Program-made: the position numbers and the translations under genes
Source: an uncultured Methanolobus sp.
GTDB taxonomy: Archaea > Halobacteriota > Methanosarcinia > Methanosarcinales > Methanosarcinaceae
Assembly: GCA_963675495.1 (NCBI GenBank)
Contig: OY776215.1
Coordinates: 1,376,001-1,440,000, forward strand
Reading direction: 5' to 3'
DNA: 64,000 nucleotides
Part shown: positions 2,779-20,953 of the stretch, in pieces
How positions within the stretch are numbered: the first letter of the stretch is position 1
How the letters are laid out: every line of letters starts with the position of its first letter
The notes under the pieces: generated by a model
What the model saw: only the letters and a program-made list of their open reading frames with translations
Told to the model about the DNA's origin: nothing
The model's database searches: none

Positions 2779-2798
2779 AGATACATTCCTGTTACATA

Positions 2799-3104
2799 TC
2801 ATGTTAAAACGGCTATCTTGCCATCCTTTACCTGTGTATCGTACACGTTAACCTTTATCTTATCAGATGCTACGTATGCTCCGGTGCGAATGTCAAAAAT
2901 CCAGCTGTGACATGGACATTTTAGAGAATAGTCCTGCAGGGTACCACCCTCAAGATGACAGTTCATGTGTGGACATCTGTTCTCAAGAGCAAACAGTTCC
3001 CCACCTTTACGGATAAGGAGCAATTGTTTGTCCCCGACATCCAGGGATTTCATTTCACCTTCTTTCACTTCATCAGCATTTGCAACTATTACCCACGAAG
3101 TCAT
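2799..3104 (-). CDS. Rieske [2Fe-2S] ferredoxin (copy 2)
   Basis: CPHMNCHL...CPCHSWIFDIRTG. Confidence 0.9.
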   Translation of the reverse strand: MTSWVIVANADEVKEGEMKSLDVGDKQLLLIRKGGELFALENRCPHMNCHLEGGTLQDYSLKCPCHSWIFDIRTGAYVASDKIKVNVYDTQVKDGKIAVLT

Positions 3105-3131
3105 TTCAGACCACCTTATGTAACGAACAGT

Positions 3132-3446
3132 TCAAAGAAGGACAAGTATTTCTCCATCTTCTACCTTGTTCTCGTAGAATTCAAGAGCTTCATCCTTGTC
3201 TCCAAGATATTTGCCAGACCTTATGTCATATTCCCAGCCATGGCACGGGCACTTCAGAATAAACTCATCTCTGAAAGTTCCTTTAGAAAGACGACATCCC
3301 ATATGTTTGCACTTACCGAAAAGTGAATAGATAACTCCATTTTTCCTTATAAGAAGCAAAGGTGTTCCCTTAACCCTGACAAACTCCATATTGCCCTCAT
3401 TCAAATCACTATCATTAAGTGCAAAAAACCAGGATTTTTCCGACAT
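3132..3446 (-). CDS. Rieske [2Fe-2S] ferredoxin (copy 1)
   Basis: CKHMGCRL...CPCHGWEYDIRSG. Confidence 0.9.
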   Translation of the reverse strand: MSEKSWFFALNDSDLNEGNMEFVRVKGTPLLLIRKNGVIYSLFGKCKHMGCRLSKGTFRDEFILKCPCHGWEYDIRSGKYLGDKDEALEFYENKVEDGEILVLL

Positions 3447-4804: not shown

Positions 4805-6049
4805 TTATTCGTATCTCAGTGCATCCACCGGCTTCATCTTTGATGCATTGTATGCAGGAATTACACCTGAGAGTACTCCTATAACTACTGCGATGGAAAT
4901 TCCCATCAGCATAAGATCAGGAGCAATCGCCGTACCCATAGACGAGCGCATCATGCTTATTCCAAGATATGGCAATAGAGATGACAATCCAAGACTCAGC
5001 ACAATACCAAGCACACCACCTACAAAGCCCACAAGCGCAGAGTTAAACAGGAAGATCATGAGAATATCACTGTTCTTAGCTCCTATGGCTTTCATGGTAC
5101 CGATCTCCTTGGTCTTTTCAAGCACAGATGTGAACATGGTGTTTGCGATTCCCACGGAACCTACTACAAGTGACACACCTGCTATGGCTCCCAGGAACAA
5201 TGTCATTGATTCCATCATCTCACTGGCAGATTCTGCCATTGACAATGAATCAGATACAGTGAAATCCCTGTCGTCCTCATCGGCTATGTGCCTGGAGATC
5301 ATAAGTTTCTCTTCTATTTCATCCACAACAGTCTCTACATTATCGGCATCATCTGCTAATACAACTATACTATCATAGACTTCATCCTCTGCATCATCAA
5401 TGATCTCTACTGCTGCATCTATCGGCATGATGATAGAATTATCACTTTCGCCATCTTCCAGTACACCTACAACTCTGAAGGATTTATCTTCAATCACAAG
5501 CACACGGTTGATGGCTACTTCTTCATCGAACATCTCATGGGCTATCTTGTAACCTATGACCACAGCATTGTTGTCAGTGGTTTCCAGCAACCTGCCGGAT
5601 TCCAGGTCATACGTCACGGTGTACTGCCAGACCTGCGGATCTACTCCCTGTACGGAAAGATCGGCAGTTTCACCCATGAAGTAGACTTCCAGATCACTGC
5701 CGGATATCTTGCCATAGATGTAATCGATGTTCTCTACCAGTTTTATTGCCATGATATCCTTGTCAGTCAGTTCTGCATCATCAGAGGAGGAGGAACTGTC
5801 CCCACCACCTCCCGGTGGACCACCTCCCATTGCTGACTGAGCCTTGGTATAACCTGGTGTGACCGATATTGATGTGAGATCCATATCAGCAAACCTTTCT
5901 TCCATATCTGCTTCCATGCTGTCACTGAGTGCCATGATGGTTACAACCGATCCTACACCGATGACGATACCTATTATTGTGAGCCAGCTTCTGATCTTAC
6001 TGTGAACCAGAATATTCATAGCAAGCTTTAGATAGGTACTTCGTCTCAT
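4805..6049 (-). CDS. MacB/FtsX-family ABC transporter permease
   Basis: RSWLTIIGIVIGV, large extracellular loop, GIANTMFTSVLEKTKEIGTMKAIGA, PAYNASKMKPVDALRYE. Confidence 0.93.
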   Translation of the reverse strand: MRRSTYLKLAMNILVHSKIRSWLTIIGIVIGVGSVVTIMALSDSMEADMEERFADMDLTSISVTPGYTKAQSAMGGGPPGGGGDSSSSSDDAELTDKDIMAIKLVENIDYIYGKISGSDLEVYFMGETADLSVQGVDPQVWQYTVTYDLESGRLLETTDNNAVVIGYKIAHEMFDEEVAINRVLVIEDKSFRVVGVLEDGESDNSIIMPIDAAVEIIDDAEDEVYDSIVVLADDADNVETVVDEIEEKLMISRHIADEDDRDFTVSDSLSMAESASEMMESMTLFLGAIAGVSLVVGSVGIANTMFTSVLEKTKEIGTMKAIGAKNSDILMIFLFNSALVGFVGGVLGIVLSLGLSSLLPYLGISMMRSSMGTAIAPDLMLMGISIAVVIGVLSGVIPAYNASKMKPVDALRYE

Positions 6050-7434
6050 TTCTTTTCCTTCTTCAATATCTTTCCTTTAAGATTTTTAAGTTCAACACTC
6101 AGAGGTTCATAAGTACCTGCCTTTTGCATCTTCTTCTTCCTGTAATTGAATCCTACAACTACTATTGCCAGAATTGCAGCACCGTAGAGGTAGTAGCTGT
6201 TAGTTGATGAACTCTGCCCGGGCCTGCTGCCAGGAGTCATGCCTCCTGCCATGGTACCACCTGTCAGTTCTTCTACCTGGACTGCTTTATCTACTGAATG
6301 CCTCTGACCAGCAGAGTCGGTGTATTCGATAGTCACAAGAAGCTCACTATTTGATTCCATTTCTTCCTGCATGGCTGCCATGTTTTCTCCACTCATTTCC
6401 GAAGAATCCGGACGTGCCTGAGCTGTACCGGACGAATCTTCTTCATCCATTGAAGGCATTGAACTGGTCTGGCTGATTGAGAACGATGTTATCGTGTAGT
6501 CACCTTTCTCGAGGTTACCGACAATTGTGGAAGTGCTTCCTGTAGCCTGGAAATTATCCTGGTCAGGTATTGATACCTTCACAGAGTAAGCCTCATTGTT
6601 ACCTACATTTGCAAGGGACAGGGAAACCTCTCCTTCATCACTCTCGGAGTAACTCAGGTCAAAGTCAGTGCTTCCTCCGACGAACAATCCCGCTTTAGTT
6701 TCAATTGTGGAAGTGTTAGAGTCGTAATCCTCAAATTCCAGGGTAATATCAAGCTGGTAAAGACCAGGATCCGCATCCACATCGGCCATTACGGAATATA
6801 CTACCGTGATGGATTCGTCCACATCAAGATTACTTATGTATTTGGTGTTGGAGGAATATACCGGCAGGACCACACCTGTGGATTCTTCCCATGAGACTTC
6901 CATATTCTGGAGTGCAGATGATCCTGTGTTGGTTATGACAAACTCCAGGGGTTCCACAGTTGCAACATCAATGCTTGATTCGCTGATCGTAACTATCTGT
7001 GCATATTCTTTGCCCCGTACTTCAACTTCAAGAGTTGTAACGGACCTTGAATCAGATTCACTGTCGCTTACGGTTACATCTACATCATAAGTACCGTCTG
7101 AAACATCGGAATCCACCTTTAGTTTGAATTTTATAAATGATGCGTCTTCCTCATCCTGACGGGCTTCCAGGAAAGAAATTGTCTTGGTCAGGGATTCCCC
7201 GTCCACCTGTGAAAACGGATATTCTGAATCCACACTGACTTTTACATTAGATAGGTCATTGCTTCCCTCGTTCTGGAGACTTAATGTCAGTTCTACTGTT
7301 TCACCTGGTCTTGCAGGGTACGGACTCTGGGTCAAAAGATCCACCGCCACGCCTGATATATCGGCATTCAAATCTGCTGCAACAGTACTTATTGGCAGAA
7401 TCAATATTAACATCAATAACAAAACTTTTCTCAT
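6046..7434 (-). CDS. COG1361-type S-layer-domain protein with C-terminal membrane anchor
   Basis: Signal peptide, PYPARPGE, repeated Ig-like N-G...V...L motifs, C-terminal TM plus basic tail; lies between ABC ATPase and permease. Confidence 0.8.
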   Translation of the reverse strand: MRKVLLLMLILILPISTVAADLNADISGVAVDLLTQSPYPARPGETVELTLSLQNEGSNDLSNVKVSVDSEYPFSQVDGESLTKTISFLEARQDEEDASFIKFKLKVDSDVSDGTYDVDVTVSDSESDSRSVTTLEVEVRGKEYAQIVTISESSIDVATVEPLEFVITNTGSSALQNMEVSWEESTGVVLPVYSSNTKYISNLDVDESITVVYSVMADVDADPGLYQLDITLEFEDYDSNTSTIETKAGLFVGGSTDFDLSYSESDEGEVSLSLANVGNNEAYSVKVSIPDQDNFQATGSTSTIVGNLEKGDYTITSFSISQTSSMPSMDEEDSSGTAQARPDSSEMSGENMAAMQEEMESNSELLVTIEYTDSAGQRHSVDKAVQVEELTGGTMAGGMTPGSRPGQSSSTNSYYLYGAAILAIVVVGFNYRKKKMQKAGTYEPLSVELKNLKGKILKKEKK

Positions 7435-7439
7435 TTAAA

Positions 7440-8315
7440 TCACATCGCTTCACTGTTTTTAATCTCTATTCTGTCAACCATTCCATCTTTGATATGGACC
7501 ACACGATCTGCATATTTTGCAAGATCCGGGTCGTGAGTAATCATTATAATCGTCTTGCCTTCGTTTTTGTGAAGGTTGCTTAAAAATTCAAGAATGTAAT
7601 TTCCTGTTTCGCTGTCCAGATTTCCCGTTGGTTCATCTGCAAGGATCACCTTGGGATCAACTGCGAGAGACCTTGCAATTGCAACTCTCTGCCTTTGTCC
7701 TCCTGATAACTGGGAGGGAAGATTGTACTTTTTATCAGAGAGAGTGACGATCTCAAGGAGGTCTTCTGCTCTCTTCCATGTAAAATCAGGATCCTCTTCC
7801 TGGAATTCAAGAGGAAGCATGACATTTTCAATTGTGTTTAATGTTGGTATCAAATTAAATTGCTGGAAAATGAAACCGATGAGCTGCCCTCTTATCTGGG
7901 CAAGCTCGGACTCTGGCATCTTTGAGATATCTTTATTATTTAACTCTACAATTCCCTTACTTGGAATATCCAGGCATCCCAGAAGATTCATCATTGTACT
8001 CTTGCCGCTTCCACTGGGTCCAAGTATGACGACAAACTCGCCATGCAGGATCTCCAGATCGACACTTTTCAGTGCCGCAAATTCTACCTCTCCCATCTTG
8101 TATATCTTCCACACATCAGTAAGACGCATGAGAGTTTCGCGATCGTTGCCTGAAGACTTGTTTATCACATTCGTTTCATCAATGACATTCTTAACAGCCT
8201 CAGTATAATCACCTGAAGACTTGTTCTCCAAATTAGCTCTATCAATGAGATTCTTAGCAGTCTCAATATAATCGTCCGAAGGCTTGTTTTTCACATTCGT
8301 AAAATTCCCGTCCAT
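7440..8315 (-). CDS. ABC transporter ATP-binding protein (LolD/MacB type)
   Basis: [34 protein letters not shown]-loop ITHD. Confidence 0.95.
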
Positions 8316-8419
8316 AATTTACCTCAATGCGTGGTACTTTAATTTAAATATAAATATAAAGTATATAATTAGTATTTAATACATGTGCCTGTGTGCCTAA
8401 TGAACAGGGAATGTATTAA

Positions 8420-8587
8420 TCAATCTTCCCTTATCGGAGATATTTTCAGCAAACGATCAATTTGTCCAATATCCAGTTTCCTGTACAGAGAGGAAATGAC
8501 ATGTTCAGAAACATTTGTCCAATTCTGGCTTGAACGATCAGCGTTCCATCCATTGAATTTTTGCTGTGTACTATTATTGTTCTTCAT
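8420..8587 (-). CDS. Putative small protein, 55 aa
   Basis: GGAGG SD then ATG; MKNNNSTQQKFNGWNADRSSQNWTNVSEHVISSLYRKLDIGQIDRLLKISPIRED*; directly follows leader RNA copy A. Confidence 0.45.
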   Translation of the reverse strand: MKNNNSTQQKFNGWNADRSSQNWTNVSEHVISSLYRKLDIGQIDRLLKISPIRED

Positions 8588-8599
8588 TCATCCTCCAAT

Positions 8600-8760
8600 T
8601 TCGGATAAGAGACATCTACCGGATAGGGGCAGACATCCCTTAAACGAAGGGGTGGTTGGTTGTTGGTATGTCGGTGACACCTGGTTGGATGTGGTTGGGG
8701 GGTTGATGTCACCGAATTGAATTGTGCCCGTTAGAGCAATAGCACTGACAGGCAATTCCC
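8600..8760 (-). ncRNA. Conserved structured leader/sRNA, copy A
   Basis: Stem1 8715-8705/8681-8671 with C/A-rich loop; stem2 8642-8628/8620-8606 with CCUAUCC loop; homologous to copies at ~14.9 kb and ~16.9 kb. Confidence 0.65.
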
Positions 8761-8775
8761 TAATTCGTATTTTTA

Positions 8776-8836
8776 AATAAAAGCATGCTTATTTCAAAAA
8801 GATTTAAAAATAACTACATTTGATTAATAAAGCTTT
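8776..8836 (-). promoter_or_regulatory. Island promoter A: AAAGCTTTAT box + BRE/TATA
   Basis: Box 8836-8827, AAGCATGCTTTTATT 8790-8776; same layout as four other promoters. Confidence 0.65.
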
Positions 8837-9494
8837 ATAAACAATTTAATAGTGAAAAAACAGTTTATAATAAAAATAAAAGCTTATTTAATCTATTATA
8901 GCACTTAAAAATAGCTAAAAAGTGCTGAAAACTAATATTTAACAAAAAATATAGATTGCCTTATCAAAAATGATTAGTATGCAGAAATACCCAAATAAAA
9001 ATAACAAAAAACATTCATTTACTAATCCAATAAGGAAAAATGCATCAGCACACCTTTCTCAAAATTTTAGATCTTGTATGTTTTTTCAGCTTCGATGCCA
9101 AGTTCTATGATTAATGAGTGATTTAAAAGTTATTAAAAGCAAATTGATACTTCATTTAGATTTAAAACAAATAATTGGCATTATAATAAATCATTGATGA
9201 AATTGTATGAGATGCCTTCCAGAAGGAGATGGCAACTAACAAAATGCCTGTAATCAAATGACACAATATATTGACATAACAAAGTATGGAAAAATAGAGG
9301 GTGCAGAAATCCTGCTAATCACAACTTGAATTCTGCAATTTTATGCTCTGTAGAAATCCTACCATGCCATGATTATCTTGAGTGAAAACGAAGGGTCCGG
9401 CAAAGCCAGTGCTTTCCCAGAAGATGAAACAAGATTTCCCGATTTGGATATAGAATGGGATGAGTGACACCGTCATCCTGAGACAATAGTGTCT

Positions 9495-9580
9495 CTACTC
9501 CCAATTCAAAGCATCAGGTTAGATACTACGTACCAGACAGGCATATTTTATAATATCGTTCGCCTCCCTTCGGCCAGCGT
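9495..9580 (-). pseudogene. Degenerate 3' end of a DUF1566 lipoprotein gene
   Basis: Aligns to the 3' end and flank of 10679..11875 (GGCGAACGATATTATAA...CTGGT-CG...CTTTGAATTG) with indels. Confidence 0.7.
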
Positions 9581-9599
9581 CTGTTGATGAAACTGCCGT

Positions 9600-10406
9600 T
9601 TAACTTTCTTCTGCTGTGGGTGTAGTTTCATATTCTATAATAAAACCATAAGCTTTCCCGCCTGATTTCTCAAGACCATAAGTTCCATGTTCTTCTGAAT
9701 AATCTCCCCAGGTTGAAACCGGAGCATTCATTTCACCAAAACCCAGAACTCTCTGACCATAAATTGAATCTCCTGAATCATTTGGTTGTGTATTATCTCT
9801 TGGATCCTGATCAATAATTCCGTCATCTAAATTAGCTGCCCAATTGGTATACTCCCAGGCCTCACCGCTAAGCCAGTTCCAGTCCTGATCAGGATTTTCA
9901 GTAACTAAAATTTGATAACCGCCCAGGTGTGGACCGATCATAATTTCATAATGATTCATTTGATTTTCATCCCCATTCCATTCAGGGAATGGCCAAAAAT
10001 ATTTCTCATCAGAAACAAGTCCAAAGGCAAATTCATTTTCTGCTTCACTTGTAATTGAAACTAAATAACCACCAGCTTCTTCAGCCAGATATGCAGCTTG
10101 ATACCAGTTCAAATTTCCAGTTGGAACATATATAGCTTCATAGTAGTGGGTATTTCCATCATCATTTTCAAAAGATTGAATTTCTTCTCTCTGATAACTG
10201 ACATCTGAAGGTAACTCATCCCAGGTAAAGAACTCTGTATCAGTTGATAATTCAAATTCAACTCCATTAATTACTTTTATTTGAATCTCTCCCAATCCTT
10301 CATCACTTTCTAACACTTCATCATCTGACGCACACCCTGCAAATGCTACAAGAGAAAGTGAAACCAGAAGTACTAATGAAATAAATTTTAATTTATTTTT
10401 ATTCAT
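9600..10406 (-). CDS. Lipoprotein with C-type-lectin-like domain
   Basis: Lipobox VAFAGC; WYQAAYLAEEAGGYLVSITSEAENEF, WNWLSGEAWEYTNWA, QPND, WGD. Confidence 0.75.
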   Translation of the reverse strand: MNKNKLKFISLVLLVSLSLVAFAGCASDDEVLESDEGLGEIQIKVINGVEFELSTDTEFFTWDELPSDVSYQREEIQSFENDDGNTHYYEAIYVPTGNLNWYQAAYLAEEAGGYLVSITSEAENEFAFGLVSDEKYFWPFPEWNGDENQMNHYEIMIGPHLGGYQILVTENPDQDWNWLSGEAWEYTNWAANLDDGIIDQDPRDNTQPNDSGDSIYGQRVLGFGEMNAPVSTWGDYSEEHGTYGLEKSGGKAYGFIIEYETTPTAEES

Positions 10407-10447
10407 ATTATATACCTTGAAATTAATTCTAAAAAAGATAATGTGGT

Positions 10448-10525
10448 TTATAGATCGAACTTTGGGTTGATCTGCTGGTGGCCCACCAGCGCAACAAAGG
10501 CAATTATCAATAAATTGTTCTTCAT
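10448..10525 (-). pseudogene. Internally deleted relic of a lipoprotein paralog (25 codons)
   Basis: MKNNLLIIAFVAL start joined directly to GCTGGTGGGCCACCAGCAGATCAACCC, the AGGPPADQP 3' end of the paralogs. Confidence 0.75.
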
Positions 10526-10678
10526 ATTATCCCTCAATCGCCTTATCTACGATTCTGTTATTGATTTAAATGATTCTTTTGTACTTTTTTACTACAAGTT
10601 GAGTAAAAATATTAATAAAAAATCTGAAAATAAAAGAATGAGGATTTATATTCCTCATTCTCAATTCAAAGTGTCGAA

Positions 10679-11875
10679 TCAGACATCCCGCACCAGACGG
10701 ACATAGTTATAATATCGTTCGCCGCCTTCGCCCAGCGCTCCACCTTCATATTTGGTATCGAACCGTGCAGCACCGGCACCATGCGAATCACTGCCGCTGG
10801 CATCGGGTGCAGTGCCAAAGGCAACATACCAGGCGTAGTAGTATTCCAAGCTGTTACCACCGAAGTAAGCACTGGTACTAGTCCAGAAGTATCCGTAATC
10901 CGTGTCGTATTCCGTTGTTCCTGCAGGAAGCTCGGTGATGTCGAAGTAGTCTGTGTCAATAGCAGGACCAAGATCCTCCTCATCATCCGCACTTGGGGAT
11001 GAGCTATAATCAACGATGCTCTGAAGCTCTTTCACATTGGGCAGACGCCAGTCATCGTAGCCGGCAAGTGTAGAATCCTCAGCATATTCAAGAGCATCTT
11101 CCCAGTCCATTCCAGTGCCACTGTCTGCCTGTTGCCACATCAGACCTGTGGCTTCATCAGTGACCGTGCCGTCTCCATTTGCCTCGAAGTCATTAAGACC
11201 ATATGAATCGCCTCTAACTGCACGCACATACTTAGCCATCGGACCGTTAACTGTTGCAGGATATGCCTTGATATGTCCCGTTCCGTGATTCACTCCAAAA
11301 GCTGCATCAGATCGACCTTCCACAGTTGTGCCAACGTAATAGTTAGCAGACCAATATTGTTCATCTTTGCTCACACGTGAACCTGAACCTACCAGCTCAA
11401 AATAATCCGTATTTATGTAAGGCCATCCTTCTGAGAAGTCATTAAGGGAATACAATTCCTTCATAGTAGGCATGCGCCATTCATCATAACCACCCAGTTC
11501 CAGGGATTCACAGTATTCATTTGCTTCTTCCCAGTTCAAGGTGGCATCTATCGGAATCTGCTGCCACATCAGTCCTGTAATATCATCCGTTATTGTGCCG
11601 TCACCGTTGTCAGTATAACTGGCTTGCAGGCCGTCAGATTGAGCATCTTGACCATAGAACGCCTCTCCTTCTTCAGGGCAGTCTATTTCGTTTCCGTCAG
11701 CATCATAACATGCAGTCTGGCTGGTGTCAACAATCGGGTATGTCAGGCCGGTAGTGACCTGTTGCATTGATGTCGATTCGGCATCATCTGCATCTGTCTG
11801 TTCTGTGCAGCCGGAAAGCGAGATGGCAAGGACCATCATCGCAACAAGAGCGATTTTTAATAAATTTTTCTTCAT
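10679..11875 (-). CDS. DUF1566 (Lcl C-terminal-like) double-domain lipoprotein
   Basis: Lipobox ISLSGC; YPIVDTSQTACYD; two D/NGDGT.TD..TGLMWQQ...GYD.WR.P..KEL repeats; YVRLVR end. Confidence 0.85.
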   Translation of the reverse strand: MKKNLLKIALVAMMVLAISLSGCTEQTDADDAESTSMQQVTTGLTYPIVDTSQTACYDADGNEIDCPEEGEAFYGQDAQSDGLQASYTDNGDGTITDDITGLMWQQIPIDATLNWEEANEYCESLELGGYDEWRMPTMKELYSLNDFSEGWPYINTDYFELVGSGSRVSKDEQYWSANYYVGTTVEGRSDAAFGVNHGTGHIKAYPATVNGPMAKYVRAVRGDSYGLNDFEANGDGTVTDEATGLMWQQADSGTGMDWEDALEYAEDSTLAGYDDWRLPNVKELQSIVDYSSSPSADDEEDLGPAIDTDYFDITELPAGTTEYDTDYGYFWTSTSAYFGGNSLEYYYAWYVAFGTAPDASGSDSHGAGAARFDTKYEGGALGEGGERYYNYVRLVRDV

Positions 11876-11944
11876 ATTATTCCTCTGTTATATGATTATA
11901 TTTCAGTTTCAAAATTGATTACAGCATATCAAATTTATTCTATT

Positions 11945-12394
11945 TTACTTTTCTTTTTCTTTAGCCATGATTACTTTCTGATAAAAAACCAGATATAAGA
12001 GTAATGTTGATAAACCTAAGATCAAAAAGATAATTTGCATCTCTAACTCATAGCTTGCTGAATTAAATAATAGTTCTAATAATGATGCGGTAAAAGTGAT
12101 TTCCATAAGATATTTGACACTCAGATGATGATTCTTGAAATAAGCCATAAGTACCTTGTATGCTTTTACTAGAATCACAATTGTTGCAACTACTTCCAAC
12201 CACATAATTGCTTGACTATGAAAATTTATAATTTCTCCTGAATAAAACATACGGAGTATCTCACGAGAAAAAATCACCACCCCAATTGTTGAATGTAAAA
12301 ACATAAACAATATTAGCACTACTGTCGGAATCAAGACTGCATAAGAAACAACCTTATCTAATAATTCTTCAACTCTTTGCTCTTCCATCTTCAA
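11945..12394 (-). CDS. Four-TM membrane protein, PsiE-like
   Basis: Hydrophobic segments; ILVKAYKVLMAYFKNHHLSVKYLMEI resembles the PsiE-family core; AT-rich. Confidence 0.5.
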   Translation of the reverse strand: MKMEEQRVEELLDKVVSYAVLIPTVVLILFMFLHSTIGVVIFSREILRMFYSGEIINFHSQAIMWLEVVATIVILVKAYKVLMAYFKNHHLSVKYLMEITFTASLLELLFNSASYELEMQIIFLILGLSTLLLYLVFYQKVIMAKEKEK

Positions 12395-12568
12395 TTACCT
12401 ACTAATAAAATATAAAAATTAAGGCCCTCATGCAGTAATCTTTTCAATTGAACCCCATGTTTTATTCGCATCTCCCATTGAACCTGAAAAGTGCATGATT
12501 TTGAATCAGAGACTTCCGGCGGAGAGTAGAAAATAAATATTTAAACTCTATGAGGAGATTGTAAAATT

Positions 12569-12596
12569 ATGGCTGCCTCTCTGAAGGGGCAGCCAT
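12569..12596 (-). terminator. Hairpin downstream of the 505-aa lipoprotein gene
   Basis: ATGGCTGCCCCT-TCAG-AGAGGCAGCCAT; homolog at 14311-14338 with a compensatory change. Confidence 0.6.
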
Positions 12597-12615
12597 CATA
12601 CCTTATAGATCAATT

Positions 12616-14133
12616 TTAGGATTGACCTGCTGGCGGTCCTCCGGCAGAAGTTCCTAAAGCTTCCATGAGAACTTCTTCAGTAACACCAAGTTCAGCTGCT
12701 GCAGCTGCGAAATCAGGAGGAGTCTGTCCAGGCTCACCTAATGCTGCTACCAGTTCGTCCTCAGTTATGCCTAATTCTGCGGCTGCAGCTGTGAGATCAG
12801 GCATTTCCTGTTGCTCTCCGGGACCACCGGATTGTTCATCATCCGGGGCACTTCGATCATCGGGACCACTACCTCTATTACTCATACCTGTGTCACCATC
12901 CTCGAATACAACAACCCGATCGGTATCGATGACACTTGGATCTCCATCCGGTGTTTCGACGACATCACCGCCGCGTACCAGGCGCACATAGTTGCCCGAG
13001 TCATCGGAAACGTCTACCGATTTTCTGTCAAAACAAATCGAGCCTGCACCATGCAAGTCGTAGCCGTCCGGGTCTGCGTTGTAGCCGGAAGCAAGGAACC
13101 AGGCAAAAACGGTGCCGCCATCGATATCGTCGCCATCACCTTCTATCGGATTGGACGTACTTGACCAGTAAAATGGATAATCGACCTGCTCGGCTATCAC
13201 ATCACCAGTCTCAGAATCATAAACTACATTTGTGATCTCTGTCAAGTCGAATACGCTTGTATCTATGGCCGGAAATGAGCCGGAGTAATCCGCAATACTC
13301 TGCAATTCTTTGATATTGGGCAGACGCCAATCATCGTAGCCAGCATAGGTGGAGTCTTCAGCATAGGCCAGGGCATCTTCCCAGCTCATTGCCTCACCAC
13401 TGTCTTCCTGAGACCACATCAGACCGGTTGCTTCATCAGTAACAGTGCCGTCACCGTTGTCAACAAAATCATTGATGCCGTAGGATGTATCGCCACGAAC
13501 AGCACGCACGAATCGATTACCGCTCATCGCTTTGATGTGTCCGGTCCAGTCGTTGACAATAAATGCGGGATCGCCTTGAACCTGCTCGTTCTGATACTCA
13601 CTTTCGACCAGGTAGAGATTACTTGTCCATGAATGATGCTGAGCAAGATCAGAACCATCACCTACCAGGTAAAAGTAGTTGGTATCGATCCATGGCCAAC
13701 CTTGTGAATAGTCCCTGAGAGACCACAGTTCTTTCACCGTAGGCAGGCGCCAGTCGTCATAGCCACCCAGTTCCAGGGATTCGCAATATTCATTCGCATC
13801 TTCCCAGCTCATGGATGAGTCTGAAAGATCCTGCGCCCAGACCAGACCGGTCACGTCGTCGGTGACAGTACCGTCGCCGTTGTCGGTGTAGCTGGGAGTG
13901 ATTCCTGTGTATTGTGCATCCTGTCCATAAAATGCATCACCTTCGGCAGGACATTCAATGCGTTCGCTATTGTCGTAGCAGGTACCCTGGTTTGTATCCA
14001 CAATTGGATATGTCAGGCCAGTTATAGATGTTGATCCAGTATCTGCTGTATCCGTCTGCTCCGCGCAACCGGAAAGCGAGATGGTAATGACCATCAGCGC
14101 AACAAAAACAATTTTCAATAAATTATTTTTCAT
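12616..14133 (-). CDS. DUF1566 double-domain lipoprotein with C-terminal PD(L/F)xAAAAELG repeat module
   Basis: Lipobox ISLSGC, two DUF1566-type repeats, C-terminus PDLTAAAAELGITEDELVAALG / PDFAAAAAELGVTEEVLMEALG. Confidence 0.85.
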   Translation of the reverse strand: MKNNLLKIVFVALMVITISLSGCAEQTDTADTGSTSITGLTYPIVDTNQGTCYDNSERIECPAEGDAFYGQDAQYTGITPSYTDNGDGTVTDDVTGLVWAQDLSDSSMSWEDANEYCESLELGGYDDWRLPTVKELWSLRDYSQGWPWIDTNYFYLVGDGSDLAQHHSWTSNLYLVESEYQNEQVQGDPAFIVNDWTGHIKAMSGNRFVRAVRGDTSYGINDFVDNGDGTVTDEATGLMWSQEDSGEAMSWEDALAYAEDSTYAGYDDWRLPNIKELQSIADYSGSFPAIDTSVFDLTEITNVVYDSETGDVIAEQVDYPFYWSSTSNPIEGDGDDIDGGTVFAWFLASGYNADPDGYDLHGAGSICFDRKSVDVSDDSGNYVRLVRGGDVVETPDGDPSVIDTDRVVVFEDGDTGMSNRGSGPDDRSAPDDEQSGGPGEQQEMPDLTAAAAELGITEDELVAALGEPGQTPPDFAAAAAELGVTEEVLMEALGTSAGGPPAGQS

Positions 14134-14310
14134 GTTATTCCTCTGGGATTTAATTGATTAATATTGATTATTAAAAATAATAGAATGATCTCAGGTTTCT
14201 CTTCATGTCAATTATAAGTCCACATACATTTGGTTCTTCGATTTCGAATAAGAGACCCTGCGGAAAGGATAAAATAAATATTTAAACTTTTTTGATGGGA
14301 TTGTGAAGTT

Positions 14311-14338
14311 ATGACTGCCTCTCTAAAGGGGCAGTCAT
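14311..14338 (-). terminator. Hairpin downstream of the 147-aa lipoprotein gene
   Basis: ATGACTGCCCCT-TTAG-AGAGGCAGTCAT inverted repeat. Confidence 0.6.
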
Positions 14339-14358
14339 CCACGTTTTATAGAGTTAGC

Positions 14359-14802
14359 TTAGGGTTGATCTGTTGGCGGCCCACCTGCAGAAGCTCCTAA
14401 AGCTTCCATAAGTGCTTCTTCAGTAACACCAAGTTCGGCTGCTGCGGCTGCGAAATCAGGGGCGCCCTGGTCAGGGTCTCCTAATGCCGCTTCCAGTTCT
14501 TCTCCGGTTACGCCTAATTCAGTGGCTGCAGCTGCAAAATCAGGCATCTCCTGTTGCTCCCCTGGACCACCGGGTTGACCATCTACCTCTTCATCATTTC
14601 TGACTGCATTTTCTTCAGAATCCATTTCTGGTTCAGGACGATCATCATTTTCTACTGGCAATTCTGATGTTGAATCAGCGGTTGTTTCCTGCTGAGATAT
14701 GGATTCAGTATCTTCTGCACCTGTCTGCTCCGTGCAACCGGAAAGCGAGATGGCAAGGACCATCAGCGCAACAAGAGCTATTTTTAATAAATTATTCTTC
14801 AT
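14359..14802 (-). CDS. Small acidic lipoprotein consisting of the PDFAAAA repeat module only
   Basis: Same signal peptide/lipobox and same C-terminal ~70 aa as 12616..14133, without DUF1566. Confidence 0.8.
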   Translation of the reverse strand: MKNNLLKIALVALMVLAISLSGCTEQTGAEDTESISQQETTADSTSELPVENDDRPEPEMDSEENAVRNDEEVDGQPGGPGEQQEMPDFAAAATELGVTGEELEAALGDPDQGAPDFAAAAAELGVTEEALMEALGASAGGPPTDQP

Positions 14803-14904
14803 GTTATCTTCCTTTTGTATAAATAGTTCATTATATTTTTAAATGATTGAATGTTGAATACATCATTTTGAACGATAAACCTACCCCATAATTTGCAGCA
14901 CCAC

Positions 14905-15062
14905 CGAACAGAGTAATCTGCGGATAGGTACAGACACCTCTTAACAATTGGTGGTTGGTTTTATGGTGGCACCTGGTGATTGGAGATCAATTTGAATGGT
15001 AATGTTCAGGTGCCACCATTATGGGGGATTGAATACTTCAGCAATCATTTGCTGGACAAATC
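14905..15062 (-). ncRNA. Conserved structured leader/sRNA, copy B
   Basis: Perfect 13-bp stem1 15019-15007/14975-14963; stem2 14941-14910 with ACCUAUCC loop. Confidence 0.65.
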
Positions 15063-15078
15063 CTAATTTGAGATTTCT

Positions 15079-15137
15079 AATATAAGCATACTTATCCCAA
15101 AAGATGGAAAATAGTCCGAATTTAGAAATGAAACTTT
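15079..15137 (-). promoter_or_regulatory. Island promoter B
   Basis: AAAGTTTCAT 15137-15128; AAGTATGCTTATATT 15093-15079. Confidence 0.65.
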
Positions 15138-15322
15138 ATAGTGCATTTAATAACACATATATATTCCATAATTGCCTTTAAAACTTATTAACAGACTATT
15201 TGGGTTTTAATTAATATTAAAATAAATAAAAATGGGTTTTTAATTTGTCATCAGAATGAGGTTTATGGGACAACTCTACCATACGATAGTGATGGCCCTC
15301 ATTCTCAATTCAAAGTATCGGG

Positions 15323-16642
15323 TTAAATATCCCGTACCAGACGCACATAGTTATCAATTCTTACGGCATCACCCTGCGGGCCGTTGCCTTCTGGATAATC
15401 TGATGCTTCACCTGCTTTGGGATCGCTCTTCTGTGCTCCTGCGCCGTGCACATCCTGCCATTCATCTTCCATATATCCCATCGACCTGCCAAAAGCTACA
15501 TAGGATGCAGCACCGCCGTTTTCGTTCGATGATGCATGTGTTGTTCCACTCCAGAAGTACGGATAATCTGTCTCACCAGCTTCGTTTGTAATCGCTGTGC
15601 ATTCAAATACCGGATCGATTGCGGCAGATTCTGAGGTGTCAGGTGAACGTGAGTAGTCAACAATGCTCTGGAGCTCTTTTACATTCGGAAGGCGCCAGTC
15701 ACTATAACCAAGATAGGTTTCATCATTCTTTGTCTGAACCCATGCGAGCGCCTCTTCCCAGTTCATGCTAGTCCCACTGTCTGACTGTGACCAGACAAGA
15801 CCTGTTGCCCCATCGGTAATTGTACCGTCACCGTTGTCTGAAAAGTTGTTTATACCGTAATCCGGATTGCCCCTGACACAGGTGACAAAGAATGTTTTAT
15901 CACTGTTGAACAGGGTCAGACCATAGCCCTTTATTCTGCCATCGGCAAAATTCACACCGAATAGTAAGCTGTCCTCATATACATACAGTGTTTCTGATGC
16001 GTACTGCGAGTCAATGATGCGCTCGCCCGCATCTGTATCTCCATATGCGAAACTAAAATAATCTGTGTCGATAAATGGAATCAGGTCTGAGGTGTCAGTC
16101 CCTTCGCTGGGATCAGTACCACTGAATCTTATTAATGAATATTGTTCCTTGATGGTCGGGAGGCGCCAGTCGCTGTATCCCCCATAGTTTTCCGCATTAA
16201 GCTCGTCCACAAATTCCTGTGCCTCGGACAATGTGAGTTTATCTTCTGCAAGGATTTCACCGTCACCATTGGTATCCGGAGATTGCTGCCACGTCAATCT
16301 GGTGACTTCATCATAGACTGTAAGTCCGTCACTGCTGATTGCGTAGGACGGTTGGTTACCAGAATACTGTGCATCCTGTCCATAGAACGCTTCGTCTTCC
16401 TCCGGGCAAGTGATCTCGGTGCTAGTGTCGTAGCACATCATCTGGCCGGTATCAACTATTGGGTATGTTAGACCAGTAGTGGTGGTCTGTTGTGTAGATG
16501 TTGATTCAACATCTTCTGTATCCGCCTCTTGCGTAGATAACGGTTCAGTATCTTCCGCATCTGCCTGCTCCGTGCAACCGGAAAATGAGATAGCGATAAG
16601 CATCATCGCAACAAGAATAAATTTTAATGTATTTTTCCTCAT
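15323..16642 (-). CDS. DUF1566 double-domain lipoprotein
   Basis: Lipobox ISFSGC; YPIVDTGQMMCYD; GYSDWRLPTIKE / GYSDWRLPNVKEL; NYVRLVRDI. Confidence 0.85.
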   Translation of the reverse strand: MRKNTLKFILVAMMLIAISFSGCTEQADAEDTEPLSTQEADTEDVESTSTQQTTTTGLTYPIVDTGQMMCYDTSTEITCPEEDEAFYGQDAQYSGNQPSYAISSDGLTVYDEVTRLTWQQSPDTNGDGEILAEDKLTLSEAQEFVDELNAENYGGYSDWRLPTIKEQYSLIRFSGTDPSEGTDTSDLIPFIDTDYFSFAYGDTDAGERIIDSQYASETLYVYEDSLLFGVNFADGRIKGYGLTLFNSDKTFFVTCVRGNPDYGINNFSDNGDGTITDGATGLVWSQSDSGTSMNWEEALAWVQTKNDETYLGYSDWRLPNVKELQSIVDYSRSPDTSESAAIDPVFECTAITNEAGETDYPYFWSGTTHASSNENGGAASYVAFGRSMGYMEDEWQDVHGAGAQKSDPKAGEASDYPEGNGPQGDAVRIDNYVRLVRDI

Positions 16643-16835
16643 ATTATTCCTCTATTATATGTTTTGCAATTTTGATAATTAGTTCTCGTGGTTTCATATC
16701 ACTTTTTTGCTACAATTAAAATATTAAATGATATTAATATTAGAATTTTAAAAAATTGATGATACGTGAAAAGAAAATGATTGAGATTTAATAATCCTGA
16801 TTTAAAACATGATTTTACGTAATAGATTCACCAGC

Positions 16836-16993
16836 ATCGAATAGAGGCATCTGTAGATAGATACAAATGCCTCTTAACGATTGGTGATTGATTCTAGATG
16901 ACACCTGTAAGAGGTTGGATAGGTTGGTGGTATTCAGGTGTCACTGCTGAAAATGGTGGTACGTTTCAGCAATCACTTGCTTGACAAATTCCC
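16836..16993 (-). ncRNA. Conserved structured leader/sRNA, copy C
   Basis: Stem1 16944-16935/16907-16898; 13-bp stem2 16874-16862/16855-16843 with UCUAUC loop. Confidence 0.65.
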
Positions 16994-17007
16994 AATTGTT
17001 TATTTCT

Positions 17008-17067
17008 AATAAAAGGATACTTATAGAAAATAGATTCAAAAAAGACAATACATTATAATGAAGCTTT
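17008..17067 (-). promoter_or_regulatory. Island promoter C
   Basis: AAAGCTTCAT 17067-17058; AAGTATCCTTTTATT 17022-17008. Confidence 0.65.
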
Positions 17068-17243
17068 TTTGCACAATTAAAATGAAATAAAATTGGTAAA
17101 TCAACCTTAAATACTTATCAGACACCAAATTATATTTTATTTCATCAAATAAACAAGATACCGGGTTCCAGAAATAACTATGTAAATACCACTTAAAAGT
17201 GAAATACATCTGGAAATCGTATGGTTGCTATAAAAGGAAAATA

Positions 17244-18140
17244 TCAATTGTCTTTCTCATCTACCAGAAAGAGGACATTTCCACGTCCCTTCTTAAATTT
17301 CTGGATCCTGCCCCTCTTTTCAAGGTCAAGGAGCATGAGACTGACCTTGCCTTCAGAGTACTTAAGACGCTTACGCATATCCTTTTGAGTCATTCTTCCA
17401 CCCTGTGATGTGAGAATATCAAGGATCTCCTGAAGATCTGCAGGCACCGGTTCATCAGAAGGAAGGGGAACCGATTCTTCTTTTGTTTTTCCCAGAGGGA
17501 TATTAACAGGTTCATTAACAACAGGTTCATCAACTGTTTCACTTACTGTTGTGCCAGCATCTTCTTCCGGCATCAATCCCTGTTCTTCTTCCACCTTTCC
17601 CCCAGTTACTTTTTCTGTAAGCACCGGAGTTACATGCAAAGATTCTTCTGTTTTTACTTTCTTTGATGGAAGAGACTTTTGTGGTTTCCGTTTGATCTGG
17701 TATACCAGAACAAGCAGAAGAATAATAACAACAAACACAGCTCCAACCAGAATTGAATTGCTCCGAGCCGTCGCTTCCGCACTACTTACAGTCTCTTCAC
17801 TGGAGCTGGAATATGAGGGCAAAAGCAGAAGATCTAAAACATAGCTTCCCTCATCTGAAACTATGATCGTGTCTTCAGCAGAGTAGGTAAGTCGATCATC
17901 TTCGTAATAGCTTGCAGTAATGTGATAAGTACCATTTGGTAATTCAAAGGAATAGACACCATACTTGGCCACCATTGACTGCGAAGGGGTCGAATTTACT
18001 TCGATTATTGCATTGTCAAGAGGCTCAAATGTGCTCCATTCATAGGCCACGCCATGTACAGTTGCAATACTTGAAGCTGCAGTAACGCCTGATAACAGCA
18101 AGATCATGGCAATACAAACGATACAGGATATTACTCTCAT
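17244..18140 (-). CDS. Membrane-anchored winged-HTH transcriptional regulator (COG2512-like)
   Basis: Signal peptide MRVISCIVC..., extracellular beta domain, TM ILVGAVFVVIILLLVLVY followed by KRK, C-terminal wHTH GGRMTQKDMRKRLKYSEGKVSLMLLDLEKRGRIQKFKKGRGN; start moved to 18140 to avoid overlap. Confidence 0.8.
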   Translation of the reverse strand: MRVISCIVCIAMILLLSGVTAASSIATVHGVAYEWSTFEPLDNAIIEVNSTPSQSMVAKYGVYSFELPNGTYHITASYYEDDRLTYSAEDTIIVSDEGSYVLDLLLLPSYSSSSEETVSSAEATARSNSILVGAVFVVIILLLVLVYQIKRKPQKSLPSKKVKTEESLHVTPVLTEKVTGGKVEEEQGLMPEEDAGTTVSETVDEPVVNEPVNIPLGKTKEESVPLPSDEPVPADLQEILDILTSQGGRMTQKDMRKRLKYSEGKVSLMLLDLEKRGRIQKFKKGRGNVLFLVDEKDN

Positions 18141-18162
18141 GTCACACAACCCGGTTTTTGTA

Positions 18163-19077
18163 TCAGTCACGCTCAAACATTTGCTTTTCCCAGAGATTTT
18201 CTTCTCTGTCGGGTGTACCATTTTCAAAATAATATGTACCGTTACCAATCAGCTCGGCTTCACCGACACCAGTTGCAAGCAGGCTTATTTTTTCAGCCAT
18301 TATCGCAACGGAGAAATCTGTGCCTGACAAGGACACATTGCCTTCTACCTCTACATATGAAACCGTTCTATATGGTTTAATGTACCCTGTAATTGTTTCT
18401 CTTTCCGGAAGAACTTCCTGATTGTAGTCTTTTTCAGAATCAATTAACATATCACCTGCAAAATCAATCACAGAGAATTTACCCCCGGAAACGAAAAAAC
18501 TTGTATCGAAGTCCCCGGACAAGATCACAATACCACTGCCTTCAGCTACCAGATTAGTATTATCATATATTTTCACAGGACCAGGAAGATATTCTTTCAT
18601 CTTAGCGAATATGGATTTAAGTTCTGAATTTGCACGAATGATACTTCCTCTTGATAGTTTTAAATATTTTTCTTCATCTGATTTTACGGAAGAAGTTTCA
18701 GCCTCAGCAAGATACATCTGGGCTTCGGATACAAGAGTAGCATATTTACCAGTCATCTGTTCCAGTTCCTGAACATCATTGCCTTCTTTTTTCAGACGCA
18801 TGGTTGCGTTATTAAGATTGATGACAATAGCCTCTGCCTTCTCAATATTGTCTTTGAGAACAAATTTTTCATCAACCGGAAAAGAAGGTGGAGGCAGGTG
18901 GATGAGTAACCTTTCCCCTGTTTGTAGCTCTTTTACATCAAAAGGAGGAGTGAACAATAGATCATACTGCTCATGCCTTTCATCAGGATATTGTTGCATA
19001 TCACCCGAATCCACAATGCCTGAAACAACAACAAGAAGCATTAGAAATATCAATAGTATCAGAGGCATCTTTTTCAT
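18163..19077 (-). CDS. Exported hypothetical protein (paralog of 19367..20272)
   Basis: N-terminal hydrophobic anchor; shared LKxxGNDVQELExM and GSGIVILSGD motifs. Confidence 0.8.
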   Translation of the reverse strand: MKKMPLILLIFLMLLVVVSGIVDSGDMQQYPDERHEQYDLLFTPPFDVKELQTGERLLIHLPPPSFPVDEKFVLKDNIEKAEAIVINLNNATMRLKKEGNDVQELEQMTGKYATLVSEAQMYLAEAETSSVKSDEEKYLKLSRGSIIRANSELKSIFAKMKEYLPGPVKIYDNTNLVAEGSGIVILSGDFDTSFFVSGGKFSVIDFAGDMLIDSEKDYNQEVLPERETITGYIKPYRTVSYVEVEGNVSLSGTDFSVAIMAEKISLLATGVGEAELIGNGTYYFENGTPDREENLWEKQMFERD

Positions 19078-19366
19078 TGACGATCACATCTTTGGGAATA
19101 CAAGCAACAAATCACTATATCCTGTTTCAGGACAGATAATTGATATTAAAGTGTTTTAAGCATAGTCTTCATTTAATATATTGCACACATATTTAAATGC
19201 ATGCTCTTGTTATAGGTAATGGAAAAGAAAACATTATTACAACCTTTCGATTTACTTAAATGATTTTAACCTTGGAATAATCTGATTTTGCTGAAAAATA
19301 TAATGATGCAAATTCAGGTTGCAAAACATGTAGCCTTAAGTTCACATTTCCACAATTAGCAATATC

Positions 19367-20384: not shown

Positions 20385-20465
20385 AATATAAACATACTTT
20401 AGCTGGGAGATATGTTTTGAAATAAACAAAGTAATTTATTAGCTTTTAAAACTTTATGAAGCTTT
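20385..20465 (-). promoter_or_regulatory. Island promoter E (regulator operon)
   Basis: AAAGCTTCAT 20465-20456, AAAGCTAATA 20446-20437, AAGTATGTTTATATT 20399-20385. Confidence 0.55.
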
Positions 20466-20892
20466 TTAAGGATATGGAACACCAAATAATACTCTAATAA
20501 TAATATAAAAAGCTAAATTACTTATTATAAGAGTTTTTTGAGGATTTAAGTGCACAATTAGAAGTCTAAGAATAGCGCTGTTTTTAACCAAATTCAACAA
20601 ATTGAACATAAAGTTTCCGTAGATGACAACCTGGATGGTTTTGTCCTGTGAATTTTTGTTTGATAAGCGGGTGGATCAGACAATCCAATTTAATGATAAT
20701 TTAGAATAAATTCCAGATTGACCACTTATTTTGCTTTGTAACTATTCTGGCAGTTTACTAGCGAAATCATAGAATTATAAGTGAAACTTGGTTTGCAGGA
20801 TACTGAAAACTTCATGGCATAGAATCATTACAAAGATATAAAATTACTCATTTAAGCTTTTAGAAGATTGCAAAGCTAGATAAACCTTTATT

Positions 20893-20953
20893 AAAGCTTT
20901 ATTTTTAGTATTAAAGTTATTATTCAACTTTTTTTGCCAAGTATGCTTATATT
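20893..20953 (+). promoter_or_regulatory. Island promoter D
   Basis: AAAGCTTTAT 20893-20902; AAGTATGCTTATATT 20939-20953. Confidence 0.65.

Follow-up and report, generated by a model that had tools for sequence, protein, structure and literature searches.

Candidate structured 5' leaders with G-free, C/A-rich loops in the methanogen genus Methanolobus

Introduction

To our knowledge, very few structured cis-acting RNAs of archaea have comparative support, and almost none of them come from methanogens outside a handful of riboswitch classes. Small RNAs with C-rich loops, such as RoxS/RsaE of Firmicutes and sRNA41 of Methanosarcina mazei, act in trans and carry their own terminators, and the guanidine-II (mini-ykkC) riboswitch is made of two short hairpins with ACGR tetraloops. 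Here we analysed a stretch of 64,000 nt from an uncultured Methanolobus sp. (GenBank assembly GCA_963675495.1, contig OY776215.1, positions 1,376,001 to 1,440,000 of the forward strand; hereafter the window), in which an initial annotation, made from the sequence alone, had described three minus-strand copies (A, B and C) of a two-hairpin RNA. Long leaders occur in this genus: 24% of the mRNAs of Methanolobus psychrophilus have 5' untranslated regions (UTRs) of more than 150 nt (PMC5378194), and endonucleolytic cuts in 5' UTRs near ribosome-binding sites raise the stability (half-life) and the translation of its transcripts (PMC5499594).

The elements resemble the candidate cis-regulatory leaders and riboswitch candidates that comparative genomics has contributed to Rfam (for example the motif sets of PMC2864571 and PMC5737381) in being covarying multi-hairpin RNAs that lie between promoter and ribosome-binding site and are tied to particular operons. 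Unlike those, the Methanolobus leader is archaeal and found essentially in one genus, has G-free C/A unpaired tracts and no Rfam match, and normally precedes a small conserved open reading frame (ORF), although it is also portable before lipoprotein cassettes. With RoxS/RsaE and sRNA41 it has in common that G-free C-rich sequence, which could pair with G-rich ribosome-binding sites, is exposed on hairpins, but in most copies it appears to be the 5' part of an mRNA, and no target was found. The long 5' UTRs of M. psychrophilus come from the same genus, and ribosome-binding sites embedded in stem-loops as well as activating cuts are documented there (PMC5378194, PMC5499594). The parts of these two reports drawn on here concern single genes (ribosomal proteins, thermosome, Hsp20), with no description of a conserved and covarying family of leaders, and in contrast to the masked sites of that species the leader shows no excess masking of the Shine-Dalgarno (SD) sequence. 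Judged by their sequence, these structured 5' leaders form a new family that is restricted to the genus and belongs to a known general kind of RNA. The interpretation that we favour, and to which we give an even chance, is that A, B and C are paralogous copies of a genus-level, minus-strand 5' leader of about 175 nt which shares the promoter of a regulon, acts in cis and is recognised by a factor.

Results

Anatomy and fold of the three copies

The three elements were located on the minus strand within about 10 nt of where they had been annotated (Table 1). They are paralogues, each a leader of about 175 nt, and align across about 230 nt including the promoter with a mean column identity of 75%. 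All have the same layout, in which an A/T-rich upstream region with a TATA-like box is followed by the start AAUUNGGNAUUUG, hairpin P0, hairpin P1, a C/A-rich linker (J1/2) and hairpin P2. In the family as a whole the order is start, P0, a C-rich joint, P1, the linker GUACCAACAACC with a pyrimidine tract, P2 and a clamp of 3-4 bp. The P1 stem has the sequence GGUGNCACC and usually closes a large G-free C/A-rich loop, which in A, B and C is 23, 31 and 27 nt long with 0, 1 and 0 G residues, respectively. P2 has 12-15 bp and a YCUAUC loop in the three copies. Stem-1 arms, loop sizes, linker and stem 2 with its loop all read as in the initial annotation, and the four G-U pairs reported for stem 2 of A are present.

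RNAalifold predicted P0, P1 and P2 from the alignment of A, B and C, with compensatory changes. In comparison to dinucleotide shuffles, the P1-P2 segment folded with z-scores of -7.10 (A), -5.61 (B) and -7.05 (C) on the minus strand, with none of 200 shuffles as good in each case, and with z-scores of -0.45, -2.61 and -1.82 on the plus strand. The genome of the organism (2.87 Mb in one contig, 40.5% G+C) contains only A, B and C, all within 8.4 kb; nhmmer gave one weak fourth locus (E = 0.08). Three copies in a single locus, with those of relatives in synteny, rule out a miniature inverted-repeat transposable element or another dispersed repeat; a match to such a transposable element would have refuted the initial annotation.

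Covariation and strand

Homologues were collected with a covariance model made from copies A, B and C (R1) and a second model made from 39 full-length matches (R2). In the model-fitted alignment of the 39 copies, 84.6% of the cells were paired compared with 76.0% in shuffles, two-sided changes were seen in 29 of 39 pairs compared with 18.1, and the covariation score was 0.312 compared with 0.167 (reached by 0 of 500 shuffles); with slid partners the score was 0.03-0.11. P2 was 97.7% paired with two-sided changes in 11 of 12 pairs, P1 90.3% with changes in 7 of 13, and P0 89.1% with changes in 3 of 5. Because this alignment leans towards the model, the test was repeated on a structure-blind MAFFT alignment (A6) of 45 copies, with one doubtful match (L067) left out. 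RNAalifold recovered from it 8 bp of P1 and 12 bp of P2, and 12 of these 20 pairs had two-sided changes (8.3 in shuffles; 5 of 500 shuffles reached 12). The paired cells of P1 and P2 amounted to 95.8% (90.5% in shuffles), and the covariation score was 0.350 against 0.234, which none of 500 shuffles reached, and against 0.05-0.15 when slid. The compensatory stem changes first noted in three copies therefore extend to a wider set of homologues, well above shuffled and slid controls.

We also followed 13 variable P1 and P2 pairs on a tree that was quickly inferred by maximum likelihood from the columns outside the stems. The pairs showed 3-13 state changes, most of them several times on each side; pair 202/221, for instance, changed six times on the left and six times on the right and was still paired in 42 of 45 copies. 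As the pairs changed repeatedly on both sides, the covariation does not go back to one inherited change. G-U cells outnumbered A-C cells by 52 to 2 in P2, 40 to 5 in P0 and 20 to 12 in P1, or 112 to 19 in total. Together with the strand asymmetry of the fold z-scores, this excess points to selection on the minus-strand RNA, as the initial annotation had claimed.

Conservation of single strands and the palindromic P1 stem

Relatives carry two paralogous leader types, between which the small ORFs are only 13-44% identical and P0 and the upper part of P2 have drifted with compensation. The P1 loop (AACCCCCAACCACAUCCAGCC in most copies), the linker, the P1 stem and the base of P2 (UAAGAG/CUCUUA) are near-invariant between the two types. 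The conservation of P1 loop and J1/2 next to diverged ORFs, P0 and upper P2 reflects selection on the sequence of unpaired RNA, of the kind that a binding surface would show. Each P1 arm is a 9-nt palindrome GGUG-N-CACC in nearly all copies (window 8705-8713 and 8673-8681), and since both arms are the same palindrome, the P1 helix is self-complementary. In four copies the two arms read CAUC/GAUG and in another GAUG/CAUC; this compensation between arms supports P1 as a helix in RNA. Pseudoknots of the 5' end with the P1 or P2 loop, checked by eye, were not consistent across sub-types.

Distribution and known families

With R1, full-length matches were found in 19 of 35 other genomes of the genus and in 0 of 25 genomes of other genera of the order. 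In 150 further genomes of the family, R1 matched 19 of 34 from the genus, 1 of 34 from a second genus (g19) and 0 of 82 from 14 other genera. R2 gave matches in 25 of the 35 other Methanolobus genomes. The six matches that it added were weak (E 1e-6 to 2e-3); five of them (L066 and L068-L071) have the same architecture in diverged form, and L067 is doubtful. When one genome per species was scanned for the motif across 185,579 species, 17 stretches came up, 12 from Methanolobus and 5 bacterial, and model matches were present in all 12 of the former (15 in total) and in none of the latter. Among 14 stretches from a scan of metagenome contigs, 1 had a true model match, and a cassette-type pattern had 0 matches in a genome contig collection that apparently lacks the matching g19 genome. 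The genus was recognised as Methanolobus from the names on homologous small proteins and genome records, among them M. vulcani, M. profundi, M. bombayensis and M. psychrotolerans. From these searches, the leader family seems to be essentially confined to Methanolobus, with two cassette-type copies in one genome outside it and nothing convincing elsewhere.

Genomes of the genus that are without the RNA are also without other parts of the locus. Neither G007 nor G035 gave a match to the small-ORF family, and a close homologue of the surface protein encoded behind copy A was not found in G035, G002 or G013, with only a weak match in G007. Since RNA, small ORF and surface protein are missing together, the whole locus appears to come and go as a unit in the genus.

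In Rfam 15 (4227 models) the whole window gave only 3 tRNAs at the gathering threshold, and three representative loci (L011, L003 and L035) gave 0 matches at E <= 1, in line with the annotation's failure to recognise a known family. At E <= 5, window 8300-17300 gave five matches of 16-28 bits, all far below gathering; the only one to touch an element was mir-2818, on the wrong strand and with 19.2 bits against a gathering threshold of 90. A guanidine-II type was rejected, as the leader loops are C/A-rich with 23-31 nt, or CCUAUCC, and have no Rfam match. Full-text literature searches and one 2026 preprint, supplementary tables lying outside their scope, contained no description of the motif.

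Copies in another genus

The single g19 genome with the leader (G109) has two copies, scoring 148 and 138 bits with R1, above any same-genus relative. Both have the same promoter and an upstream AAAGCTT motif. One precedes a gene for a 428-aa Lcl_C lipoprotein, which is 71% identical to the product of window 12616-14133, and the other a gene for a 106-aa DUF4405 protein that is followed by flavoprotein/ferredoxin pairs. Both proteins have identical NCBI entries under the name Methanosarcina lacustris. The region adjoins type I restriction genes and a transposase-like ORF. No member of the small-ORF family was found in this genome, and its homologous ABC (ATP-binding cassette) operons have no leader in front (best match 8.4 bits, E = 0.24, wrong strand). 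P0, P1 and P2 are kept without a small ORF in B, C and both G109 copies. The G109 copies, with no small ORF there, indicate that promoter and leader travel as a unit with lipoprotein cassettes and that the fold is retained without the ORF. Because only 1 of the 34 sampled g19 genomes carries the leader, horizontal transfer of the leader cassette is suggested, with no direction implied.

Promoter and start region

As had been annotated, each element lies just downstream of a promoter-like sequence: a 16-mer with a BRE/TATA-type motif (B recognition element and TATA box) was found upstream of A, B and C. The window has 6 matches to it at <=3 mismatches, with 1.03 expected. A palindrome, TAAAGCTTTA(T), had 8 window matches at <=1 mismatch, with 1.89 expected, and is also found upstream of leader copies in relatives. 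The BRE/TATA motif occurs at five further sites, where a AAAGCTTTAT-type palindrome lies 40-70 bp upstream and the start region is similar (GAAUYNNGGAAAUUG). The sites with this recurrent promoter are window 20385-20400 (-) and 20938-20953 (+), G000:C1:1575987 (+), G000:C1:2824898 (+) and the diverged copies of relatives. By these motifs, the leader promoter belongs to a small regulon. Several of the further promoters have short leaders without P1 or P2, and for this reason the first dozen conserved bases of the RNA may instead be promoter or initiator DNA. In M. psychrophilus the BRE/TATA element lies about 19-22 nt from the transcription start site (PMC5378194); from this spacing, the start of copy A is predicted at about 8750-8766.

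The two window sites near 20 kb are divergent promoters with TAAAGCTTTAT-type palindromes between them (20880-20902). They front genes for a 301-aa secreted protein and a 302-aa acidic repeat protein and have short leaders without P1 or P2. A fourth locus of the same promoter type, outside the window (G000:C1:2824860-2825060, +), has two AAAGCTTTATT sites and BRE/TATA, then a 16-bp hairpin with a G-poor loop of about 50 nt in which GUACCACC occurs twice; about 130 nt further on there is an SD sequence and a gene for a membrane protein. This locus may be comparable to the G109 leader that precedes the DUF4405 gene.

Genes headed by the leader

A small ORF of one family starts 3-36 nt after the leader in 32 of 39 copies (2 truncated) and is lacking in 7; it also follows 6 of 7 further copies examined. 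An SD sequence and an ORF lie directly downstream in 38 of the 46 copies examined. The small proteins have 46-86 aa and align as one family with the motif KL-x-P-E-Q-M-x-R-L; in one sub-type the middle is variable and rich in Cys/Ser, and the C-terminal KKDFKW is conserved. Members (8420-8587 in the window, loci L002-L043 and L066-L071) are always placed just behind a leader. A profile search of 5.8 billion proteins gave 23 members, and those with names are all 'hypothetical protein' of Methanolobus; Pfam had no match to the small proteins. An AlphaFold2 model has three helices at low confidence (mean predicted local distance difference test, pLDDT, 64.8).

The small ORF is the first gene of two kinds of operon, MacB-type ABC operons and those encoding a membrane winged-helix protein. 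In relatives, the locus begins with a gene for a 300-aa secreted protein, a leader with a small ORF ending in KKDFKW, and a gene for a 302-aa secreted protein. Next come a gene for a membrane protein of 297-334 aa, which combines a CarboxypepD_reg-like part with a DUF7343 winged helix at the C-terminus, and a second leader with a second small ORF. The locus ends with genes for an ABC ATPase, a CARDB/NPCBM_assoc-type surface protein, a MacB_PCD/FtsX permease and a transglutaminase-like protein. In copy A the order is the usual one, with leader, SD sequence, small ORF and ABC operon. Copy C is at the place where relatives have the second leader, and the window has, in comparison to relatives, an insertion of about 8 kb (9600-16642) between the winged-helix gene and the ABC operon. 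B and C head lipoprotein genes of this insertion, which codes for Lcl_C (DUF1566) lipoproteins, a 147-aa lipoprotein, a lectin-like protein and a small membrane protein. Behind B and C the small ORF is lacking, and the next genes start 90 nt (B) and 183 nt (C, after T-runs) downstream. The first leader and small ORF of relatives are absent from window 19078-19366, and the closest relative (L033, 4202-4377) keeps the first leader and has lost the small ORF.

The window also has three tandem small ORFs (101-117 aa) at 2449-3446 (-) with the pattern CPHM-x-C ... CPCH, which resembles Rieske-type iron-sulphur motifs. In relatives, too, the trio lies behind the locus.

Complementary sites and other C-rich hairpins in the genome

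An extended complement to the conserved loop or linker was not found elsewhere in the organism's own genome. The 15-mer of the P1 loop had no other match at <=2 mismatches except for one same-sense site, and the 12-mer of J1/2 had 18 sites at <=1 mismatch, which is near a rough chance estimate that was not computed with a tool. An enrichment of GUACCACC (24 intergenic sites with about 7 expected) was set aside as confounded, many of the sites being an SD sequence and start codon on the other strand.

Three intergenic hairpins of the same genome, at G000:C1:550078-550166 (+), 2756788-2756855 (-) and 2642400-2642460 (-), have different stems and the common loop AACCCC(C)ACUCCCC. The latter two have a TATA-like box about 30 nt upstream, and T-runs follow the hairpins at 550078 and 2642400. 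By their sequence, the three resemble a small family of small RNAs with C-rich loops. Further hairpins with large G-free C/A-rich loops are found at G000:C1:2072201-2072282 (+), 2074136-2074215 (+), 1169546 (+), 186742 (-) and 934070-934150 (-). Two among them are 76%-identical paralogues with stems of 16-17 bp, two have AGUACCACCCCCCAAACCCCAC and then a hairpin and a T-run, and the loop of one holds both GUACCACC and CCUAUCC.

Table 1. Coordinates of the leader copies, their parts and promoter motifs, and the neighbouring genes in the window
Feature	Position	Strand	Basis or remark
Leader copy A, full length, typical Methanolobus type	8590..8766	-	covariance model R1 133.1 bits, R2 138.4 bits
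P0 hairpin of A, arms GCCUGU / ACGGGC	8727..8753	-	sequence reading and predicted fold
P1 of A, 11-bp stem, 23-nt G-free C/A-rich loop	8671..8715	-	
J1/2 linker of A, C/A-rich, near-invariant (G/A)UACCAACAACC, then pyrimidine tract	8649..8670	-	columns >=90% conserved
P2 of A with clamp	8600..8648	-	hairpin 8606-8642, 15 bp including 4 G-U, loop CCUAUCC
P2 clamp of A, UUCG/CGAA	8645-8648 with 8600-8603	-	
SD sequence GGAGG (8592-8596) and ATG (8585-8587) of small ORF, copy A	8585..8596	-	
Leader copy B, cassette type	14893..15070	-	covariance-model limits; P0 15039-15054, P1 14963-15019, P2 14910-14941
Leader copy C, cassette type	16826..16998	-	covariance-model limits; P1 16898-16944, P2 16843-16874
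BRE/TATA-like motif, copy A	8776..8791	-	16-mer motif scan
BRE/TATA-like motif, copy B	15079..15094	-	16-mer motif scan
BRE/TATA-like motif, copy C	17008..17023	-	16-mer motif scan
Palindrome TAAAGCTTTA(T), candidate transcription-factor site	8827..8838	.	about 40 bp upstream of TATA-like box of A
Small ORF, 55 aa, Methanolobus-only small-protein family	8420..8587	-	
ABC ATPase	7440-8315	-	operon behind A (4805..8315)
CARDB/NPCBM_assoc-type surface protein	6046-7434	-	operon behind A
MacB_PCD/FtsX permease	4805-6049	-	operon behind A
Lcl_C (DUF1566) lipoprotein gene	10679-11875		
505-aa Lcl_C (DUF1566) lipoprotein	12616-14133	-	after 147-aa gene
147-aa lipoprotein gene	14359..14802	-	headed by copy B
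439-aa Lcl_C (DUF1566) lipoprotein gene	15323..16642	-	downstream of copy C
Winged-helix gene	17244-18248		directly before copy C

Discussion

The structure of the leader is conserved and covaries on the minus strand, its position is between a promoter-like motif and an SD sequence, its distribution follows one genus, and Rfam has no match to it. From this sequence evidence we infer transcription, its start, a regulatory effect of the leader and the nature of its factor. In the mechanism that we propose, each leader would be transcribed on the minus strand from the shared regulon promoter and act in cis on the operon that it heads. It would serve as a recognition platform for a trans-acting factor, which may be a protein or a ribonuclease more probably than a metabolite, because the conserved strands consist almost entirely of C and A and the hairpins follow one another in series. 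Binding of the factor would set translation initiation and/or the mRNA stability of the first cistron. The earlier description as an uncharacterised structured leader family stands, with the conserved fold, the position and the lack of an Rfam match in its favour, whereas the word cis-regulatory rests on position and conservation.

Several results weigh against this mechanism. In copies with a small ORF, the SD sequence comes 3-7 nt after the clamp of 3-4 bp (UCG/CGA) that closes P2 at its foot, and faces the pyrimidine tract of the linker, an arrangement that resembles an SD-masking hairpin, and in ensemble folds the commonest SD partners were the C residues of the linker in 25 of 33 copies. 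However, masking was not above background: the mean predicted probability that the SD sequence is paired was 0.61, in comparison to 0.685 in 150 random genes of the own genome, and it was paired at >0.5 in 23 of 33 leader copies as compared to 82% of the random genes. In this test 6 of the 33 start positions were off by 1-2 bases, which hardly moved the SD window. Pairing of the 3' arm of P2 with the SD sequence had a mean of -5.99 kcal/mol, as compared to -6.30 kcal/mol with the SD regions of other genes, and was better in 10 of 27 cases. An alternation of this arm with the SD sequence holds only in one sub-clade and the five diverged copies. The proposal that the C/A-rich loops pair with SD sequences thus found no support beyond background. 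The two outer helices, which would surround P2 together with the SD sequence, were only 54-60% paired in the 39 copies, with 61 A-C cells against 7 G-U cells. An action close to the SD sequence is inapplicable to B and C, whose genes are 90 and 183 nt away. The five diverged copies have an extra helix in place of the P1 loop and a different P2 loop, so neither loop is essential everywhere, and the sequence of the P1 loop varies in the cassette copies. Moreover, the transcription start of the leader is a prediction, our analysis identified no candidate factor for the leader, and a published processing motif (UNMND/NUNAY), looked for by eye in two sequences between P2 and the SD sequence, had no match. 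An SD-masking leader or RNA thermometer was itself rejected as a model, since SD pairing is no higher than in random genes, the enclosing helices are poorly paired, and P2 is very stable with its 12-15 bp.

Other explanations have to be weighed against the factor-recognised leader. The hairpins might only stabilise or insulate the 5' end, or mark it for routine endonucleolytic removal, with no dedicated factor. Such a passive leader, which we regard as unlikely but worth serious attention, would be in keeping with the long 5' UTRs of the genus (24% above 150 nt; PMC5378194) and with the stabilising and activating effect of processing near ribosome-binding sites (PMC5499594). The same can be said of the lack of a switch-like alternative pairing among our results, and of the cassette copies, which act, if at all, at a distance from the gene. 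It leaves unexplained, however, why single strands (P1 loop and J1/2) are near-invariant in diverged paralogues, why the palindromic P1 stem sequence is conserved, and why the exact fold is restricted to a few operons of one regulon. A new riboswitch, in which P0, P1, P2 and their joints form a pocket for a metabolite or ion and control the small ORF and the transporter operon, seems clearly improbable to us. It is attractive in that a conserved, covarying multi-hairpin RNA is placed directly upstream of an SD sequence and before an ABC transporter; P1 and P2 covary and the SD sequence is downstream in 38 of 46 copies, the aptamer-like situation of a covarying fold upstream of a gene, and with no match in Rfam the class would be new. 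Yet the conserved unpaired parts are almost purely C and A, the hairpins follow in series without a multi-helix junction, the loops of P1 and P2 are dispensable in sub-groups, and no conserved alternative (expression-platform) pairing was found. Nor do the genes (small ORF, MacB-type ABC, membrane winged-helix, Lcl_C lipoproteins, DUF4405) suggest a common metabolite.

A role in trans, with the leader or a released 5' fragment pairing through its C-rich strands with G-rich ribosome-binding sites of other mRNAs, is very improbable in our judgement. G-free C-rich loops held on hairpins would suit it, and the genome has other intergenic hairpins with large C-rich loops, some with a TATA-like box and T-runs; T-runs are also found about 60-80 nt downstream of copy C, before the gene. 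On the other hand, 38 of 46 copies run directly into an SD sequence and ORF without a T-run, by which most copies would be parts of mRNAs, a search of the own genome gave no long stretch complementary to the conserved loop or linker, and the loops are not conserved in all sub-groups. We find it scarcely credible that the conservation has its cause in DNA, with the two GGTGNCACC palindromes as operators or the similarity as a product of recent duplication or a mobile repeat, and without selection on RNA. Each P1 arm is indeed palindromic and nearly identical to the other, and the elements are in a rearranged island with the insertion of about 8 kb. Compensation in P1, however, is between the arms and not within an arm, G-U far exceeds A-C, P2 has many independent two-sided changes, and the genome has only three copies in one locus, with syntenic copies in relatives.

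A broader proposal builds on the factor-recognised leader and is, in our view, rather unlikely and speculative. The leader would be one face of a Methanolobus system that presents G-free C-rich strands both in cis, in the leader, and in trans, in hairpin transcripts with C-rich loops. The strands would be read by a factor that binds C/A-rich RNA or by pairing with G-rich ribosome-binding sites, and the system would control horizontally mobile envelope genes. If true, it would be an archaeal counterpart of the bacterial riboregulation by C-rich seeds.

The leader is attractive for testing, as it combines clear covariation, a defined promoter context and a linked small-protein family. It also comes with natural variants, with or without the small ORF and with or without the P1 loop, and two operons of one locus each have a paralogous leader at their head. 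Being found essentially in one genus, the leader has a limited reach. If recognition by a factor is true, the leader would provide a handle on the post-transcriptional control of envelope and transporter genes in methylotrophic methanogens.

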